Origin: Candidatus Nealsonbacteria bacterium
GTDB lineage: Bacteria; Patescibacteriota; Minisyncoccia; Minisyncoccales; JANBVM01
Direction of reading: 5' to 3'
Length of the DNA: 64,000 nucleotides
NCBI GenBank assembly: GCA_026016225.1
Contig: CP061210.1
Span: forward strand, 517,882 to 581,881
The notes beneath the pieces are model-generated. The model searched no databases, was not told the DNA's origin, and saw nothing but the letters and a program-made list of their open reading frames with translations. Positions 26,583 to 31,784 of the stretch are shown one piece after another; positions within the stretch are counted from its first letter, which is position 1; each line of letters begins with the position of its first letter. Made by a program: the position numbers and the translations under genes.

Positions 26583-27434
26583 TTAGATTGGCATTGTCAG
26601 GACTTTTAACCTTATAATATTCAGGGATTTTTCCTTCCTAAAAATCTTTTCTGTCCCTTTATTATCTTTCTTTCTCGTTCCGTATTTTATATGGTACTCT
26701 ATTCCCCTATTCTGACAGAAATCAATAACTTTATTTGCACGCCCTTGATAAAAAGCCCCACTATCTTTAAATTTGCTTGAGTTTACATTATAATTCAATT
26801 TTCCAAATATAATCTTATCTACAAAAGATATTTCTTTCAAAATTTCTATTAAATTTTGTTTTACTAAATTCGGTGTAGGATAAGGCTCCATACTAACCCA
26901 AGTTTTTAAACCTTTTTCATGTAAAAACTTCAATGATTCTATTCTTTTTTTATAAGAAGCAGAATATGGTTCAAATCTCCTTTTAAAATCTTTATCTAGT
27001 GACACAATAGTGATACCATATTCATTATCTCTTCCATATTTTTCTCTGCTTATTAGAGTTTTTGGATATACTCCTTTTGTTAATACAACACAGCGAATAT
27101 TATCCTTGTTTAATCTCTCAATTATTCGTAAAGTCAAATCTGAAACTTCTGGATATTTATACATAAAAGGATCTGTTGAGAAGCACAAGTGAACAAATCG
27201 AATCTTTTTTTTATATTTAGGAATTTCTTTCTCTAATAATTCTAGAGCATTCGATACGATTTTTGGTTTTATCCAATCAGCATAATCTTTTATGACACCA
27301 CATCTTTTTTTCATCATCATAGCATAACAAGGAAATTTACAACCGTGAGCACAACCTTCAACATGGTTTATACAAAAATCACCATATTCCACGCCACTTT
27401 TATATAATAATGTTTTACGCTTTATCTCTTTCAT
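26583..27434 (-). CDS. Radical-SAM-like protein (SplB/COG1533-like) with variant three-Cys motif CX3CX3C
   Basis: 283 aa. N-terminal CINHVEGCAHGCKFPCYA, one residue longer than canonical CX3CX2C. Downstream FSTDPF..E, VLTKG and two EP-containing segments resemble the SplB-like radical SAM fold. Confidence 0.5.
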   Translation of the reverse strand: MKEIKRKTLLYKSGVEYGDFCINHVEGCAHGCKFPCYAMMMKKRCGVIKDYADWIKPKIVSNALELLEKEIPKYKKKIRFVHLCFSTDPFMYKYPEVSDLTLRIIERLNKDNIRCVVLTKGVYPKTLISREKYGRDNEYGITIVSLDKDFKRRFEPYSASYKKRIESLKFLHEKGLKTWVSMEPYPTPNLVKQNLIEILKEISFVDKIIFGKLNYNVNSSKFKDSGAFYQGRANKVIDFCQNRGIEYHIKYGTRKKDNKGTEKIFRKEKSLNIIRLKVLTMPI

Positions 27435-27446
27435 AGTTACATTATA

Positions 27447-28517
27447 TCATTTTTTAGGAGTAGAAACAGCTAAAAGATTATCGTCGTTTATTCTGATTTT
27501 ACCAGTATCACTATATATTTTACTTACCCTCATTAATTCTTTGACAACTTGATTATAATCGCTTTCTTTAAATCTCAAAAAATATTTCTTCATGAATTCT
27601 TCTTTTATTTTCTTTCTGGTTTTCGGTTTATTCTTTAAAAAATTAAGAATTTCACCTTCGAGAAAGACTAAATCCTTTCTCTTATCTTTAGGAAAAATAG
27701 CGATCAGTCTACCCTTTGTATAAAATTCTCTATAAATATCCCCCATTCTGTCATTCATTAACCTGAAGCCATCAAAATGAGAGGTAGCAAATATTAAGTG
27801 GTATTTGGCCAAAAGCTCATCTTTATACATCACTGGACAAGAACCAACATAAGTAAAAAATTCTTTGTATTTACTTTTATAAAGTTCTATAATTATTCTT
27901 TCTTTCTCATCTCTTGTAATTTTATCGTCTTCTAATATTTCTCTATAGTAATTACCCCCCATTACTTCATCGGTTAAGGTTGGGTTTATCTTATATTCTC
28001 TCAGCAGTGTTTGGTAGTTAAAATTAATTAACACTTCTGTTGAAATAATACGAACCTTATCAAATATTTTTTTGAGGTTATCAAATTCTAGTCCTTTTAT
28101 ACCAAACGGATCTATATAGAAAAATGTAGGACAATTTTTTGTTATTTTTATTATTTTCGGTGTAATCTTATTAAAGTCACCCATAAATAATATTGCTGTC
28201 TTTTTATCCACAAATTCTTTTAAATTCCTTTCTAATTTTTCAAAACAATCTCTATCTGAATCAATTAAAATTACAACAGCTTTAACGCCTGTTTTCTCTA
28301 TTGTCTTACAAATAATAAAAGGAGAGCCCTCACTTCCATCATCATATAGCCCAGGCCCGGCAAATCCATCCACAATGGTTATTAATTTACCTAAGCGACT
28401 AACTTTTGTTAAATAAGGCACTAAATACCATCCTAAAATTCTGTCTTTAGCTAAAGACCATGCTCTTTTTCCCTTGAAGAAATCTTCTGGTTTTATAGCC
28501 ATAATTTCATTTCTCAA
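27447..28517 (-). CDS. Methyltransferase-fold partner protein (resembles three-Cys-motif partner protein TcmP, from memory)
   Basis: 356 aa, TTG start with GAGGA SD. Motif-I-like IVDGFAGPG and motif-IV-like FYIDPFG. 12 nt from the three-Cys gene. Confidence 0.4.
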   Translation of the reverse strand: MRNEIMAIKPEDFFKGKRAWSLAKDRILGWYLVPYLTKVSRLGKLITIVDGFAGPGLYDDGSEGSPFIICKTIEKTGVKAVVILIDSDRDCFEKLERNLKEFVDKKTAILFMGDFNKITPKIIKITKNCPTFFYIDPFGIKGLEFDNLKKIFDKVRIISTEVLINFNYQTLLREYKINPTLTDEVMGGNYYREILEDDKITRDEKERIIIELYKSKYKEFFTYVGSCPVMYKDELLAKYHLIFATSHFDGFRLMNDRMGDIYREFYTKGRLIAIFPKDKRKDLVFLEGEILNFLKNKPKTRKKIKEEFMKKYFLRFKESDYNQVVKELMRVSKIYSDTGKIRINDDNLLAVSTPKK

Positions 28518-28581
28518 TTAATTCCTCGACTTTTTGTTTGCACTCTATAATTCAAAGTCTTTCCAGTTACTAAAATAACTT

Positions 28582-30456
28582 TTAATTTCTTTTGATAAAT
28601 TGCTTTCTTGGTTTTTTTCTGGGATAAATGATTCTTGTTTCTATATTATCTTTAGAAATTGCAGAGATAAAAGGAGATGGCTTTAACTGATAAGATGCTT
28701 TCTTGAATGTGATTTTTGAAGATCTCGTTCTTGAACTAAAAAGATACAATTCCTTTTTAGCCCTAGTCATTGCGACATAAAATAACCTGCTTTTTTCTTC
28801 AATATTATTATTTGAATCAGGAAATAATTCTTTTGAGAGGCCTATAACAAAAATTATATCTGCTTCCAATCCTTTACAGCTAGGCATGTTATATATCGTG
28901 ATAGGATTATAAGAGCTAATTGTATTACTTCCACTAAGTTCATTTATCCATTCCTTGATTTCAGATACTAGCTCTAATGGATTTTTCCCGGGAGCTACAA
29001 AGAGTCCACTGGTGGCTAAAAAATCTAACAGACCTGTTTTTTTTGTACCACGATTTTTAATAAGCTCTTTCAAAATATTTAAATTATTATTTAATTCTTT
29101 CAAGAATTCGCTGTTTTGTGACTCTTCGATTAAAATTTTATACAATGACTTTTTTCTTTCGACTTTCTTCCATAATTGTGCAATAAGATTACTAGCCCTA
29201 TCTCTCTTTAAGATAATTCCGCATTTTTCTTCATTAATTTTTTTTGTAAATCCATCGTAGTTTTCAATTATTAAATCAATTAAATACCTTAAAGCGATAT
29301 TGTCATTTGGGTTGTTGATCCAGTCTGTTAAGACAGTAAATCTTACCAGGCCTTGATCGCTTATATTAAATTTATATTTATACTCTAGCCCACGTTTCTG
29401 AAATTCCTCTTTTAGAACAGGAAGATACATTTTGTTAGGAATAATAATTTTAATAGTATTTGTTTTTATCTTCTCTTGTGAAATTGCTGCAATGATTTGG
29501 GCCTCTTTTTTTGCAGTGGGAACTTCACAAAATATAATTTTATTGTTAATTTTGATTTTTTCACTAAATTTTGGTTTTGGTTTTATAACTGCATTCTTGT
29601 AAAATTTATTTATCATTGATTTTGCCCCTAGTAAAATGTGTTTAGGACAACGCCAGCTTATAGATAATCTCCCAATTTTAGGATTTTTAGGAAAATCTTT
29701 TTCGAAATTGCGAATAAATTCAGTGGATCCGCCACGAAATGAGTAAATACTTTGTTCATCATCTCCTACTACGAACAAACCCTCTTCTTGGTTTTTTGAT
29801 AATAATTGTATTAATTCAAACTGTGCCTTATTGATATCCTGGTATTCATCCACTAATAAAAACTTTGTTCTTTGTTTCCACTGATTTCTAAGATCTTTAT
29901 CTCCTCTTAATGCTTCACAAGCTAATAAAATTAAATCATCGTAATCAACTCGAGTGCATTTCCGAAGTATCTTTTTGTATTCATCACAAATTTTACATTT
30001 ATCTCGTTCTGCTTTATTACATCTTCCCTTTAAACGACAATCTTCCGTGTGCTTCCAATTGTCTCTATCATAGCCAGCTAAATTTGTCGCGTCCCGAAGA
30101 AGTACTCTTTTGGGGCTTTTTTCAATTAAAATTTTGTATTTCTCTGGTAAATCAAAGCGACGACACGATGAGCCTATAATCATATTGCCCAAATGATGCG
30201 TAGTTGAAATAATTTCTGGATATTTACTTTTATCTAAATTAATATCTTTCTCTGCAAGTCTTTCTTGCATGTTTCTCGTAGCTGATTTTGTAAAAGTTAT
30301 AACGGTTATTTCATTGGGATTAACTTTCTTCTCTTCAATTAAAAATTTTATCCGTAGTGCTAACTGATATGTTTTGCCCGTACCAGGACCTGCTAATAAT
30401 AGAATGGGGCCAGGAAATTCTTTATAAGAATTTAGTGGTTCTTTTATTTCTATCAT
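28582..30456 (-). CDS. UvrD/PcrA-like superfamily-1 helicase with Cys4 insertion
   Basis: 624 aa. Walker A AGPGTGKT, motif II-III LLVDEYQD, VVGDDEQSIYSFRGG, C-terminal YVAMTRAKKELY. Cys-rich insert CRLKGRCNKAERDKCKICDEYKKILRKC. Confidence 0.8.
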   Translation of the reverse strand: MIEIKEPLNSYKEFPGPILLLAGPGTGKTYQLALRIKFLIEEKKVNPNEITVITFTKSATRNMQERLAEKDINLDKSKYPEIISTTHHLGNMIIGSSCRRFDLPEKYKILIEKSPKRVLLRDATNLAGYDRDNWKHTEDCRLKGRCNKAERDKCKICDEYKKILRKCTRVDYDDLILLACEALRGDKDLRNQWKQRTKFLLVDEYQDINKAQFELIQLLSKNQEEGLFVVGDDEQSIYSFRGGSTEFIRNFEKDFPKNPKIGRLSISWRCPKHILLGAKSMINKFYKNAVIKPKPKFSEKIKINNKIIFCEVPTAKKEAQIIAAISQEKIKTNTIKIIIPNKMYLPVLKEEFQKRGLEYKYKFNISDQGLVRFTVLTDWINNPNDNIALRYLIDLIIENYDGFTKKINEEKCGIILKRDRASNLIAQLWKKVERKKSLYKILIEESQNSEFLKELNNNLNILKELIKNRGTKKTGLLDFLATSGLFVAPGKNPLELVSEIKEWINELSGSNTISSYNPITIYNMPSCKGLEADIIFVIGLSKELFPDSNNNIEEKSRLFYVAMTRAKKELYLFSSRTRSSKITFKKASYQLKPSPFISAISKDNIETRIIYPRKKPRKQFIKRN

Positions 30457-31541: not shown

Positions 31542-31548
31542 TTAATCT

Positions 31549-31701
31549 TTTATTTCTTAAAATCCTTTAATGTTTTTCTTTTAACCGGCCATTTTGCTGC
31601 AATTATGCGGCCGTCTTTCATTTGACAATAGCTAATCATGCCATAAACTTTATGTCTAGCGAGCTGTAGAGCTTTTTTATCTTTGAAATTCACTTTAGCC
31701 A
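31549..31701 (-). CDS. Small hypothetical protein (50 aa), first gene after the operon promoter
   Basis: Minus ORF MAKVNFKDKKALQLARHKVYGMISYCQMKDGRIIAAKWPVKRKTLKDFKK. Not in track. Confidence 0.25.
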
Positions 31702-31755
31702 TATTTAGTATTACTTTTTTTGATTAATTCCTCGACTTTTTTATTTTCTACCTTC

Positions 31756-31784
31756 AAAATAGCCCTATTCTTCAAAAACGTCAA
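31756..31784 (-). promoter_or_regulatory. Promoter-like motif TTGACG-N17-TATTTT (conserved family), candidate promoter of the 31.7 to 26.6 kb operon
   Basis: rc: TTGACG tttttgaagaatagggc TATTTT. Spacer matches the other four family members at most positions. Confidence 0.45.

Follow-up and report, generated by a model that had tools for sequence, protein, structure and literature searches.

A 5.2-kb block of six co-oriented genes in the window, the 64,000-nt stretch of a Candidatus Nealsonbacteria genome analyzed here, is very likely a mosaic of independently mobile modules. In this mosaic TcmP (three-Cys-motif partner protein) and a three-Cys radical-SAM-like protein (rSAM) form the unit. 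We distinguish four modules: (i) a small peptide and a membrane protein, (ii) AbiV, (iii) an SF1 helicase and (iv) TcmP followed by the three-Cys rSAM. Judged by its occurrence in related loci, the TcmP–rSAM pair is widespread and the only conserved multi-gene unit of the block, with a putative function. As a whole, a mosaic in which the pair acts as a DNA (hyper)modification module is our best explanation, to which we give about even credence.

Organization of the block

A sequence-only reading of this DNA had described six packed minus-strand ORFs, and all six lie where it had placed them. The block and its flanking elements are organized as follows:

31550-31702, minus strand: 50-aa ORF, opens the putative transcription unit
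31080-31541, minus strand: 153-aa single-pass membrane protein (NCBI: hypothetical protein)
30481-31008, minus strand: AbiV-family HEPN protein, 175 aa (PF18728, TIGR04498)
28582-30456, minus strand: SF1 UvrD/GajB-like helicase, 624 aa, Walker A GPGTGKT
27447-28517, minus strand: TcmP, 356 aa, class I methyltransferase fold
26583-27434, minus strand: three-Cys radical-SAM-like protein, 283 aa, motif at 27327-27353
27404..31753, minus strand: variable cassette, 50-aa ORF to TcmP, without DNA homology to the sister genome
31743..31830, minus strand: junction element, terminator-like hairpin and then promoter-like site
~31790-31822, minus strand: hairpin of the junction element, GCCC..GGGC and T-run
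31784..31756, minus strand: promoter-like site of the junction element, -35 TTGACG (31784-31779), 17-nt spacer, -10 TATTTT (31761-31756)
26544-26514 and 26486-26462, minus strand: two tandem intrinsic-terminator-like hairpins, after the rSAM stop and before nadK

The gaps between consecutive ORFs are short, as described, and measure 8, 71, 24, 64 and 12 nt from the 50-aa ORF to rSAM. A terminator region had been placed before nadK, where the two hairpins were indeed found. The promoter-like motif at 31756..31784 is present as well, scoring just 9/12 in the promoter scan. It cannot be asserted to be the single promoter, because further promoter-like matches precede the AbiV gene (31044..31016) and the helicase gene (30489..30461). 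The scan returned 43 matches in this AT-rich region versus 33 expected, an enrichment that is not clear. Only their spacing, one conserved promoter element and the terminators suggest that the six genes are probably co-transcribed. Two further copies of the hairpin and promoter element (~80 nt), 83-85% identical, lie in front of different genes in the sister-genome locus (L087). By these copies, the junction element is portable.

A variable cassette beside a conserved rSAM gene

The sister genome carries a 95%-identical rSAM in the same synteny with nadK, but its cassette and its TcmP are different. In a blastn comparison, the window and L087 share 96% identity from nadK through rSAM to position 27404, and then none until 31753. 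The cassette edges are therefore formed by the conserved junction element on one side and the conserved rSAM gene on the other. Peptide, membrane protein, AbiV and helicase are all absent from the sister genome. Among the 203 non-redundant related loci listed, only TcmP and its three-Cys partner recur, with neighbor calls in the fetched loci resting on crude ORF calling. Near the pair, AbiV and the 153-aa membrane protein were found in 0/144 loci each and a UvrD helicase in 1/144; none of the three was found near the pair in 80 further loci.

These counts bear on the central proposal of the sequence-only reading, namely that all six genes form one novel defense system composed of a membrane anchor, AbiV, an SF1 helicase and TcmP–rSAM. 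The shared strand, the short gaps, the conserved promoter element upstream and the terminators downstream would fit such a system. Elsewhere, a helicase lies directly upstream of TcmP in 8/147 loci, though of SF2 type, and in S. meliloti hna-TcmP form a putative unit (PMC12445080). However, the components are not co-conserved, the very finding that the reading had named as speaking against it. Furthermore, the nearest listed relatives of the helicase and of AbiV come without the other parts. The missing co-conservation, together with the sister genome, rules out the six genes as a conserved system, and we consider a single six-gene defense system extremely improbable. Since the sister cassette is different and the helicase and AbiV relatives occur in unrelated contexts, we regard the block as a swapped cassette in a variable defense hot-spot.

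Modules upstream of the pair

The 50-aa ORF has no significant match in Pfam, NCBIfam or PADLOC, and relatives are absent from every related locus examined. In the 153-aa protein, a single hydrophobic segment (residues ~10-40, KD19 maximum 2.39) agrees with its earlier description as a membrane protein. It has no family match in Pfam, NCBIfam or PADLOC and clusters as a singleton.

The proposed resemblance of the 175-aa protein to AbiV is borne out by curated models. The protein passes both HEPN_AbiV in Pfam (PF18728; 1.4e-26, 93.9 bits, cut-off 27.1) and TIGR04498 in NCBIfam (98.7 bits, cut-off 27), the models of AbiV, the HEPN protein of Lactococcus abortive infection. The CPR protein is distant in sequence from the PADLOC AbiV model (1.7e-11), and an AbiV-type activity is putative. 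A copy with at least 90% identity is found elsewhere with an MTase and an MvaI/BcnI REase upstream and AAA_13 downstream. To judge from this distribution, AbiV is an independent, mobile single-gene module of putative abortive-infection type.

In profile searches, the helicase matched UvrD-helicase (3e-55), UvrD_C (1e-21) and the GajB models (1e-64). Its four-Cys insert CX5CX7CX2C at 29986-30039 reads CRLKGRCNKAERDKCKIC and is kept in 106/120 helicase homologues, so that the description as a UvrD/PcrA-type helicase with a four-Cys insert stands. The SF1 UvrD fold is shared with Gabija GajB and UvrD-PcrA, but the window helicase differs from both by this family-specific Cys4 insert. Assignment to housekeeping PcrA/Rep/UvrD was rejected, with scores far below the equivalog cut-offs (232.6 vs 911, 227.8 vs 951 and 175.3 vs 1144 bits). 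Gabija was rejected too, as no GajA/OLD nuclease-type gene is present among the ten ORFs scanned (26583-34676). The closest relatives among the matches listed lie in four unrelated contexts, and by these contexts the helicase is a stand-alone module of a Cys4-insert family.

Neighboring genes

Upstream of the block, the following genes were found:

31819-32061, minus strand: 80-aa protein, TM segment at the C-terminus, upstream neighbor
32070-32396, minus strand: 108-aa Hjc/pPIWI_RE_REase-like small nuclease, matches at about threshold
32522-34015, plus strand: LexA-N6_N4 DNA methyltransferase fusion (NCBI: one 497-aa protein)
33999-34676, minus strand: 225-aa ORF, convergent, overlaps the LexA-MTase fusion

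The sequence-only reading had named an Hjc/Mrr-like nuclease, a LexA-methyltransferase and a putative REase as neighbors. The LexA-methyltransferase is well supported (TIGR00498 LexA 192.6 bits, PF01555 7e-36, PADLOC MTase_II 1e-126); in L087, LexA and an MTase are each encoded by a gene of their own. Support for the nuclease is weak (Hjc 22.3 vs 21.1 bits, pPIWI_RE_REase 25.5 vs 26.1), and the 225-aa putative REase has no family match. The composition of the locus as a defense island is supported.

TcmP is a diversified methyltransferase-like protein

TcmP, whose ORF starts with TTG and is called as 351 aa by NCBI, matches TIGR04474 with 134.9 bits (cut-off 53) over residues 20-258, covering model positions 2-259 of 263. 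The methyltransferase motifs I (VDGFAGPG, 28350-28373) and IV (DPFG, 28101-28112) read as claimed for the 356-aa protein. The C-terminal domain is winged-helix-like. No PDB match was obtained at sequence level. The best structural matches are RNA methyltransferases (RlmJ/Trm1 amino-methyltransferases) and not DNA ones, an observation that speaks against the mechanism proposed below.

By analogy, the pair might modify rRNA or tRNA, like RlmJ/Trm1 combined with RlmN/Cfr-type radical SAM enzymes. In that case it would be a mobile determinant of resistance to toxins or antibiotics that target translation. However, identity to the RlmJ/Trm1-type RNA enzymes is only 10-13%, and TcmP adds the winged-helix-like domain. 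RlmJ and Trm1 are housekeeping RNA-modification genes, whereas TcmP sits in mobile defense contexts, and the operons in which the pair is embedded are DNA restriction-modification (RM) systems. Moreover, TcmP is extremely diversified across homologues, which would be unexpected if its target were a conserved RNA site, and the sole solved relative of its partner is a DNA enzyme. An RNA target is therefore improbable.

The partner is a radical-SAM-like protein with a CX3CX3C motif

The rSAM-like protein matches Radical_SAM (PF04055) with 47 bits, above the gathering threshold of 29.5, over residues 22-200. Its cluster motif CAHGCKFPC was correctly read as CX3CX3C; the canonical CX3CX2C is not found in the window protein. 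The motif is fixed in 120/120 homologues, and distant TcmP partners keep CX3CX2C. Given the non-canonical spacing, cluster binding and SAM cleavage are putative. With regard to the catalytic Cys140/Tyr98 relay of spore photoproduct lyase (SPL), an invariant Tyr (Y37) directly after the third Cys corresponds to Tyr98, and the invariant Cys84 aligns one column off Cys140. Membership in DUF5131 (PF07505) was rejected, with a sub-threshold score of 19.3 bits versus a gathering threshold of 28.9, and the protein has no PADLOC match at E<=0.1.

A mixed-family partner profile had SPL as its sole PDB match (3e-8); a profile of the window subfamily only found no PDB entry at E<=0.01. Examined for the partial TIM-barrel fold of radical SAM proteins, the structure model shows alternating beta/alpha elements, at low confidence (pLDDT 64.5). 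Its top Foldseek matches are the radical SAM enzymes HydE, PFL-AE, NifB and SPL, with E down to 5e-6. The low confidence of the model and the subfamily profile without a PDB relative also weigh against the proposed mechanism. The partner family has a single sequence relative of solved structure, SPL (SplB; PDB 4fhc), which acts on DNA. SPL gives the longest Foldseek alignment (TMq 0.57) and shares the three Cys and the following Tyr. It differs in having a CX3CX2C motif and ~340 aa, whereas the window protein comes with an obligate MTase-like partner, in a context that is mobile and linked to RM. Assignment to the SPL family was rejected, as the window protein has no PF20903 match.

With SPL as the closest solved relative, SOS-linked DNA repair is a conceivable function, in which the SPL-like rSAM would reverse a DNA lesion and TcmP would be an accessory DNA-binding factor. 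LexA nearby in the window, an S24 peptidase directly upstream in L087, and UmuD-like, S24 and ImmA/IrrE genes near viral copies of the pair would fit. However, prophage lysogeny modules explain the repressor and S24 neighbors equally, and the window protein's own subfamily profile finds no SPL. A repair enzyme would need neither a hypervariable MTase-like partner nor embedding in RM operons. We regard SOS repair as very improbable.

TcmP and its three-Cys partner recur as a pair

The rSAM-like gene begins 12 nt downstream of TcmP. Of the viral loci, 61/64 have TcmP next to a three-Cys partner, as have 43/55 of the metagenome loci. The MTase-like gene comes first and the partner second, with a median gap of 2.5 nt. 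In 57/57 loci, rSAM is conserved beside a hypervariable, fast-diverging TcmP. The pair often lies within Type I/III/ISP restriction operons and inside operons already encoding a nuclease-helicase; it is also found in prophage accessory regions and defense islands, and it stands alone as two genes in tiny CPR genomes. Loci with RM or helicase neighbors are in the minority, and 20/147 have a helicase within 6 kb, a point against the mechanism proposed below.

The proposed resemblance to a TcmP and three-Cys pair beside restriction and helicase genes is confirmed by the model match and the recurrent neighbors. The pair is not without a name, since it carries the TIGR04474 name 'tcm_partner' and its DUF5131 version is known as PDC-M30/M41, unvalidated PADLOC candidates. 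TcmP matches PDC-M30A and PDC-M41A. The B component of these candidates is DUF5131 with CX6CX2C, and the models PDC-M30B and PDC-M41B give 363-373 bits with genuine DUF5131 partners. In contrast, the window partner is PF04055/SplB-like with CX3CX3C, a type without a PADLOC model. The searchable literature holds no experiment on any TcmP or three-Cys partner.

Proposed function of the pair

We lean towards a SAM-dependent, DNA-directed function of the pair, either in modification or in an RM-like activity. TcmP would be the SAM-binding, target-recognizing subunit, in which an RlmJ/Trm1-like fold is combined with a winged helix and a catalytic DPFG loop; it would probably flip and N-methylate a base in DNA. 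The SPL-related rSAM would probably bind a [4Fe-4S] cluster via CX3CX3C and carry out a SAM-derived radical step at this or a neighboring nucleotide. The pair would thereby install a sequence-specific DNA (hyper)modification for self-marking or anti-restriction. This specific two-step modification is a tentative suggestion.

The pair also resembles Type III (Mod/Res) and Type I (HsdS/HsdR) systems, in whose operons it is physically embedded and which likewise combine a variable specificity/methylation subunit with a conserved effector. By analogy, TcmP could provide Type III Mod-like recognition and protective self-methylation, and rSAM could be a Res-like effector, docked on TcmP, whose 5'-deoxyadenosyl radical abstracts hydrogen from unmethylated invader DNA and thereby damages or cleaves it. 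The two-gene stand-alone occurrence, the gene order and short gap, the prophage and defense-island locations and the conserved effector beside a hypervariable partner would fit. So would the sister genome, where TcmP is swapped against a 95%-identical rSAM, as specificity alleles are swapped against a fixed partner in Type I/III systems. However, the Type I/III effector is a helicase-nuclease, whereas the putative effector here is radical-SAM-like, and no radical SAM enzyme is known to us as a nuclease or as an effector of restriction. A modification-only module fits the same genomic features, and the operons that often harbor the pair already have a nuclease-helicase. An RM-like system is thus unlikely. 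That the pair is self-sufficient and restricts by the radical SAM chemistry of a docked, near-invariant CX3CX3C enzyme is slightly more unlikely still; a radical-SAM restriction enzyme would then be known for the first time, and it would occur widely in CPR bacteria and prophages. Small XRE HTH genes directly upstream of the pair (HTH_3 in 17/59; a cluster of 76-aa ORFs from 23 loci) resemble RM controller proteins and would be in line with an RM-like system.

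The six-gene block is a strain-specific mosaic

ORF calling recovered six minus-strand ORFs in the block 26583-31784, exactly where the sequence-only reading had placed them, with intergenic gaps (5' to 3') of 8, 71, 24, 64 and 12 nt. The window is AT-rich, with a GC content of about 30-35%, and exact protein matches trace it to a 661-kb contig of Candidatus Nealsonbacteria (Patescibacteria/CPR). Profile searches agreed with the proposed identities. The 175-aa protein, thought to resemble AbiV, is an AbiV-family HEPN protein (PF18728, 1.4e-26; TIGR04498, 98.7 bits, cut-off 27), and the 624-aa ORF encodes a UvrD-type SF1 helicase. 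The 356-aa protein is a TcmP, a methyltransferase-like three-Cys-motif partner protein (TIGR04474, 134.9 bits against a cut-off of 53). Its 283-aa neighbor, hereafter rSAM, is indeed radical-SAM-like (Radical_SAM, 47 bits against 29.5) and matches DUF5131 weakly. The 50-aa and 153-aa products belong to no family in profile searches; the latter has a single hydrophobic segment. All sequence motifs that had been claimed read as stated, and two terminator-like hairpins follow the last gene, rSAM. A single promoter-like motif (31784..31756) had been proposed for the whole block. The site is present, but similar matches also precede AbiV and the helicase, and a single promoter can therefore not be asserted.

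The central proposal, that the six genes are one novel defence operon, did not hold. Co-conservation was missing in tests starting from TcmP, from rSAM and from the other genes, an outcome that the same reading had named as evidence against an operon. In close Patescibacteria relatives, whose TcmP is 54-67% identical, the order TcmP-rSAM recurs while the neighbors differ each time, being a Type ISP restriction-modification (RM) operon, housekeeping genes or a HEPN_Cthe2314 gene. Within 10 kb, none of the best 80 reference-genome loci found with the TcmP profile carries a window-type UvrD, AbiV or membrane protein. A second sample comprised the best 80 metagenome and 64 IMG/VR loci with a window-type rSAM. 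Here, AbiV and the membrane protein were each found in 0 of 144 loci, and a UvrD homologue in one of 144, 5.6 kb off. Such locus counts are samples, drawn as the best 80 loci among the matches listed, and ORF calling in the fetched loci simply took the longest ORF. Unbiased ORF clustering of 203 non-redundant loci with flanks of ~4 kb recovered TcmP in 199, the window-type rSAM in 124 and DUF5131 in 46, and no third gene common to all locus sets. Single-protein scans of viral contigs found no relatives of AbiV, the helicase or the membrane protein.

We conclude that the block is a strain-specific mosaic within a defence hot-spot, an arrangement that is ordinary for defence islands. That the six genes form one defence system is hardly credible. 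The earlier observation stands, and its interpretation is supported in part, though not as a six-gene novel operon. Treating the modules separately keeps a false six-gene system from being named and directs experiments to the right unit.

A sister genome reveals an exchanged cassette

The sister-genome locus (L087/L088) encodes a 95%-identical rSAM, followed as in the window by nadK, an F420-ligase-like gene, SHMT, thyA and DHFR. Upstream of rSAM the gene content differs: an S24 peptidase, a small GIY-YIG protein and a highly divergent TcmP, which shares 38% identity over 105 residues with the window protein and yet matches PDC-M30A and PDC-M41A, components of PADLOC candidate systems. DNA identity between the two genomes is 96% from nadK to position 27404, ~30 nt inside the rSAM 5' end. 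From there homology is absent until a junction element upstream of the 50-aa ORF. The segment from peptide to TcmP has thus been exchanged as a cassette, with a conserved anchor on either side. Since the breakpoint lies inside the highly conserved rSAM gene, this gene may itself be the recombination anchor for swapping upstream cassettes, including the TcmP partner. Two repeated sequence elements were noted:

Window 31743-31830; L087 2238-2285 and 4957-5035: junction element, terminator hairpin plus TTGACG-N17-TATTTT promoter, 83-85% conserved
Window 28518-28533, 31724-31739 and 13321-13336, minus strand: three copies of the 16-nt motif AAAGTCGAGGAATTAA, against 0.2 expected

The promoter-like site 31784..31756 is ordinary as a consensus match, yet it lies within this conserved hairpin and promoter element of ~80 nt, which precedes three different gene sets in the two genomes and looks like a portable cassette junction. 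The element contains a TTTTGAAG direct repeat, which could be a candidate operator. A duplication of the junction element before TcmP was ruled out: the common part is only the 16-nt leader motif and does not include the promoter. One of the three copies of AAAGTCGAGGAATTAA has one mismatch, and the two copies inspected sit just upstream of gene starts; the motif is probably a common Shine-Dalgarno leader.

Further away, window ~5000-23700 and L087 9540-18534 share segments that are 96-98% identical and rearranged relative to one another, indicating local rearrangement or insertion events that separate these close Nealsonbacteria relatives:

L087 13134-13413: window ~8552-8831
L087 13917-15154: window 13485-14722
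L087 15229-18534: window 5018-8321

TcmP and rSAM form a mobile pair

The last two genes had been likened to TcmP and the three-Cys protein found near restriction and helicase genes, and they do belong to the TcmP/three-Cys class, which already has a name in TIGRFAMs/NCBIfam. Neighboring genes are also annotated as 'radical SAM protein' and 'tcmP' in RefSeq, as on a Natronosalvus plasmid whose pair has the canonical motif, and the unvalidated PADLOC candidates PDC-M30 and PDC-M41 are versions of the pair with a DUF5131 partner. A TcmP gene of S. meliloti is listed in the putative transcription unit of the Hna helicase and is co-induced with Hna (PMC12445080). An S. meliloti plasmid match was rejected as an example of the pair, as it is a stand-alone PA0069-family gene without TcmP. 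For TcmP, DUF5131/PF07505 and PDC-M30/41 the literature searched yielded only table mentions, and functional work was not found.

Of the metagenome loci sampled, 55 extend far enough upstream, and 43 of these have TcmP directly before rSAM, as do 61/64 viral loci; the median gap is 2.5 nt. Strongly diverged TcmPs escape the phmmer and HMM thresholds, a probable explanation for part of the 12 metagenome loci where no TcmP was detected. A helicase as an obligate upstream partner of TcmP was rejected: one directly upstream, as in the window, is exceptional (0/25, 5/59 and 3/63 loci). The pair also often occurs by itself. It is repeatedly embedded within RM operons, including the following loci:

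L001: SNF2 and Type ISP, then TcmP, then rSAM
L090: MTase, AIPR and ResIII, then TcmP, then DUF5131
L192: HsdS and HsdR, then TcmP, then rSAM
L184: Eco57I-like MTase and T5orf172-ResIII, then TcmP, rSAM and DUF3644
L203: degenerate TcmP paralogue, TcmP, rSAM, 810-aa N6_N4 MTase, 960-aa ResIII protein and GmrSD
L203 7947-9083 and L221 7947-9086 (viral contigs): second TcmP paralogue, located immediately before the regular TcmP and with a degenerate SAM motif I (IDCMCNSG)

The gene for this 379-aa degenerate paralogue (hhalign probability 97.8%) is common to ~17 viral loci, and on both contigs it opens the cassette given above for L203. On IMG/VR contigs the flanking genes are co-stranded with short gaps. 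XRE-type HTH genes are enriched upstream of the pair (17/59) and N6_N4 DNA methylases downstream (14/57), together with GmrSD, REases, ImmA/IrrE-type proteins and recombinases. This context is an accessory, lysogeny-side region of mobile elements. The 'viral' contigs possibly include prophage flanks or other mobile elements.

The two partners diverge at very different rates. In 57/57 loci, conservation was higher for rSAM than for its own TcmP; the median identity between randomly paired loci was 67% for rSAM versus 27% for TcmP. The TcmP family forms 10,356 clusters at 50% identity; the window-type rSAM forms more than 5,000 clusters at 90% identity, most of which share 70-80% identity with the window protein. 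Taken with the swap of TcmP next to an unchanged rSAM gene in the sister genome, this contrast has the form of a conserved effector with a diversifying specificity subunit, familiar from RM systems of Types I and III. An RM-like system with rSAM as the putative restriction effector would share this asymmetry; we consider such a system unlikely. The pair is abundant, mobile and found in several restriction operon types and in prophage accessory regions.

The TcmP sequence profile gave only a chance match against the PDB, and a fold comparison was therefore needed. A BFVD fold search retrieved generic methyltransferases only, with low TM-score. Modification of RNA is suggested by the RlmJ and Trm1 matches of TcmP, but we judge this quite unlikely and regard it as fairly probable that the pair acts on DNA. 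The favored scheme is more tentative, with considerable doubt about the specific two steps: TcmP would recognize a base in DNA and probably N-methylate it. rSAM, bound to TcmP or acting after it, would subject that nucleotide or a neighboring one to a SAM-derived radical step, and the outcome would be a sequence-specific DNA modification serving as self-mark or anti-restriction. Should the pair modify or restrict DNA, this would be new chemistry in bacterial immunity and could account in part for how CRISPR-poor CPR bacteria defend themselves.

The rSAM partner carries a fixed non-canonical motif

The motif GC-x-HGC-x-[FY]-P-CY (CX3CX3C) was present in 120/120 closest homologues of rSAM. More distant TcmP partners keep CX3CX2C, or have CX6CX2C in DUF5131, and the three Cys and the next Tyr are invariant in all partner types. 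Within the CX3CX3C subfamily, the deviation from the canonical radical-SAM motif is fixed. Among the best 80 reference-genome loci, the gene adjoining TcmP was DUF5131 in 35, SPL (spore photoproduct lyase) in 8 and Radical_SAM in at most 10, the last partly overlapping the SPL loci. These three interchangeable partner types agree with RadicalSAM.org, where the MJ0683-like, DUF5131 and SPL subgroups form one megacluster (PMC9477430). The window partner carries CX3CX3C, matches only PF04055 in Pfam and falls outside both DUF5131 and PADLOC-B; hence it is a variant within the known TcmP/three-Cys class.

A mixed-partner profile matched SPL alone in the PDB (3e-8). In this alignment the invariant Tyr falls on Tyr98 of SPL, while the subfamily-invariant Cys84 is one column off SPL Cys140. 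A profile of the window subfamily only had no PDB matches. The AF2 model of rSAM is weak (pLDDT 64.5), owing to an alignment of shallow diversity; it has a beta/alpha pattern like radical SAM enzymes, with SPL as the longest alignment. The main remaining interest of the block is the TcmP-rSAM pair, with its fixed non-canonical cluster motif and its asymmetry between effector and specificity subunit.

AbiV, the helicase and the flanking ORFs

The window AbiV is an ordinary member of its family. A copy at least 90% identical was found on a 6.2-kb Logan contig (L241, SRR18502801), flanked by a Type II RM pair (N6_N4 MTase and MvaI/BcnI) and a 785-aa AAA_13/SMC_N ATPase. This different context indicates recent horizontal transfer of AbiV as a lone gene.

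The nearest relatives of the helicase (54-72% identity) occur in four contexts: with ClpB and a GNAT gene, in another defence island, beside a carbamoyltransferase and in a phage genome. The helicase matched GajB-like PADLOC models (1e-64) and remained far from the PcrA, Rep and UvrD equivalog cut-offs. A Gabija assignment was rejected as no GajA was found among the ten ORFs scanned at 26583-34676, and a housekeeping PcrA/UvrD on the equivalog scores. The protein carries a cysteine insert:

Window 29986-30039: CX5CX7CX2C insert of the UvrD-like helicase, conserved in 106/120 homologues (P0241-P0360)

The insert may be a zinc-binding or Fe-S module. Members of this family are ~620 aa long and occur in CPR genomes, defence islands and one phage genome (L238). 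At L238 5836-7004 a DUF6998 gene overlaps the start of the helicase homologue by 4 nt, and a weak DUF5677 gene also lies upstream; this may be another small-protein/helicase pairing.

ORFs on the upstream side of the block include:

32522-34015, plus strand: LexA (DNA-binding and S24 domains) fused in frame, via a Lys-rich linker, to an N6_N4 Type II DNA methyltransferase
33999-34676, minus strand: 225-aa ORF without family, convergent with the methyltransferase and overlapping its 3' end by 17 nt
31819-32061, minus strand: 80-aa ORF with a C-terminal transmembrane segment

The fusion is a single 497-aa 'LexA' in NCBI, and could be an SOS-cleavable methyltransferase. In the sister genome (L087 241-1818), a 195-aa LexA and an unrelated 326-aa MTase are encoded side by side as two genes, and at the DNA level only the LexA part is homologous. 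That the TcmP-rSAM pair serves SOS-linked DNA repair appears very unlikely. The 225-aa ORF had no exact sequence match in the protein collection, and is a possible cognate REase of the methyltransferase.
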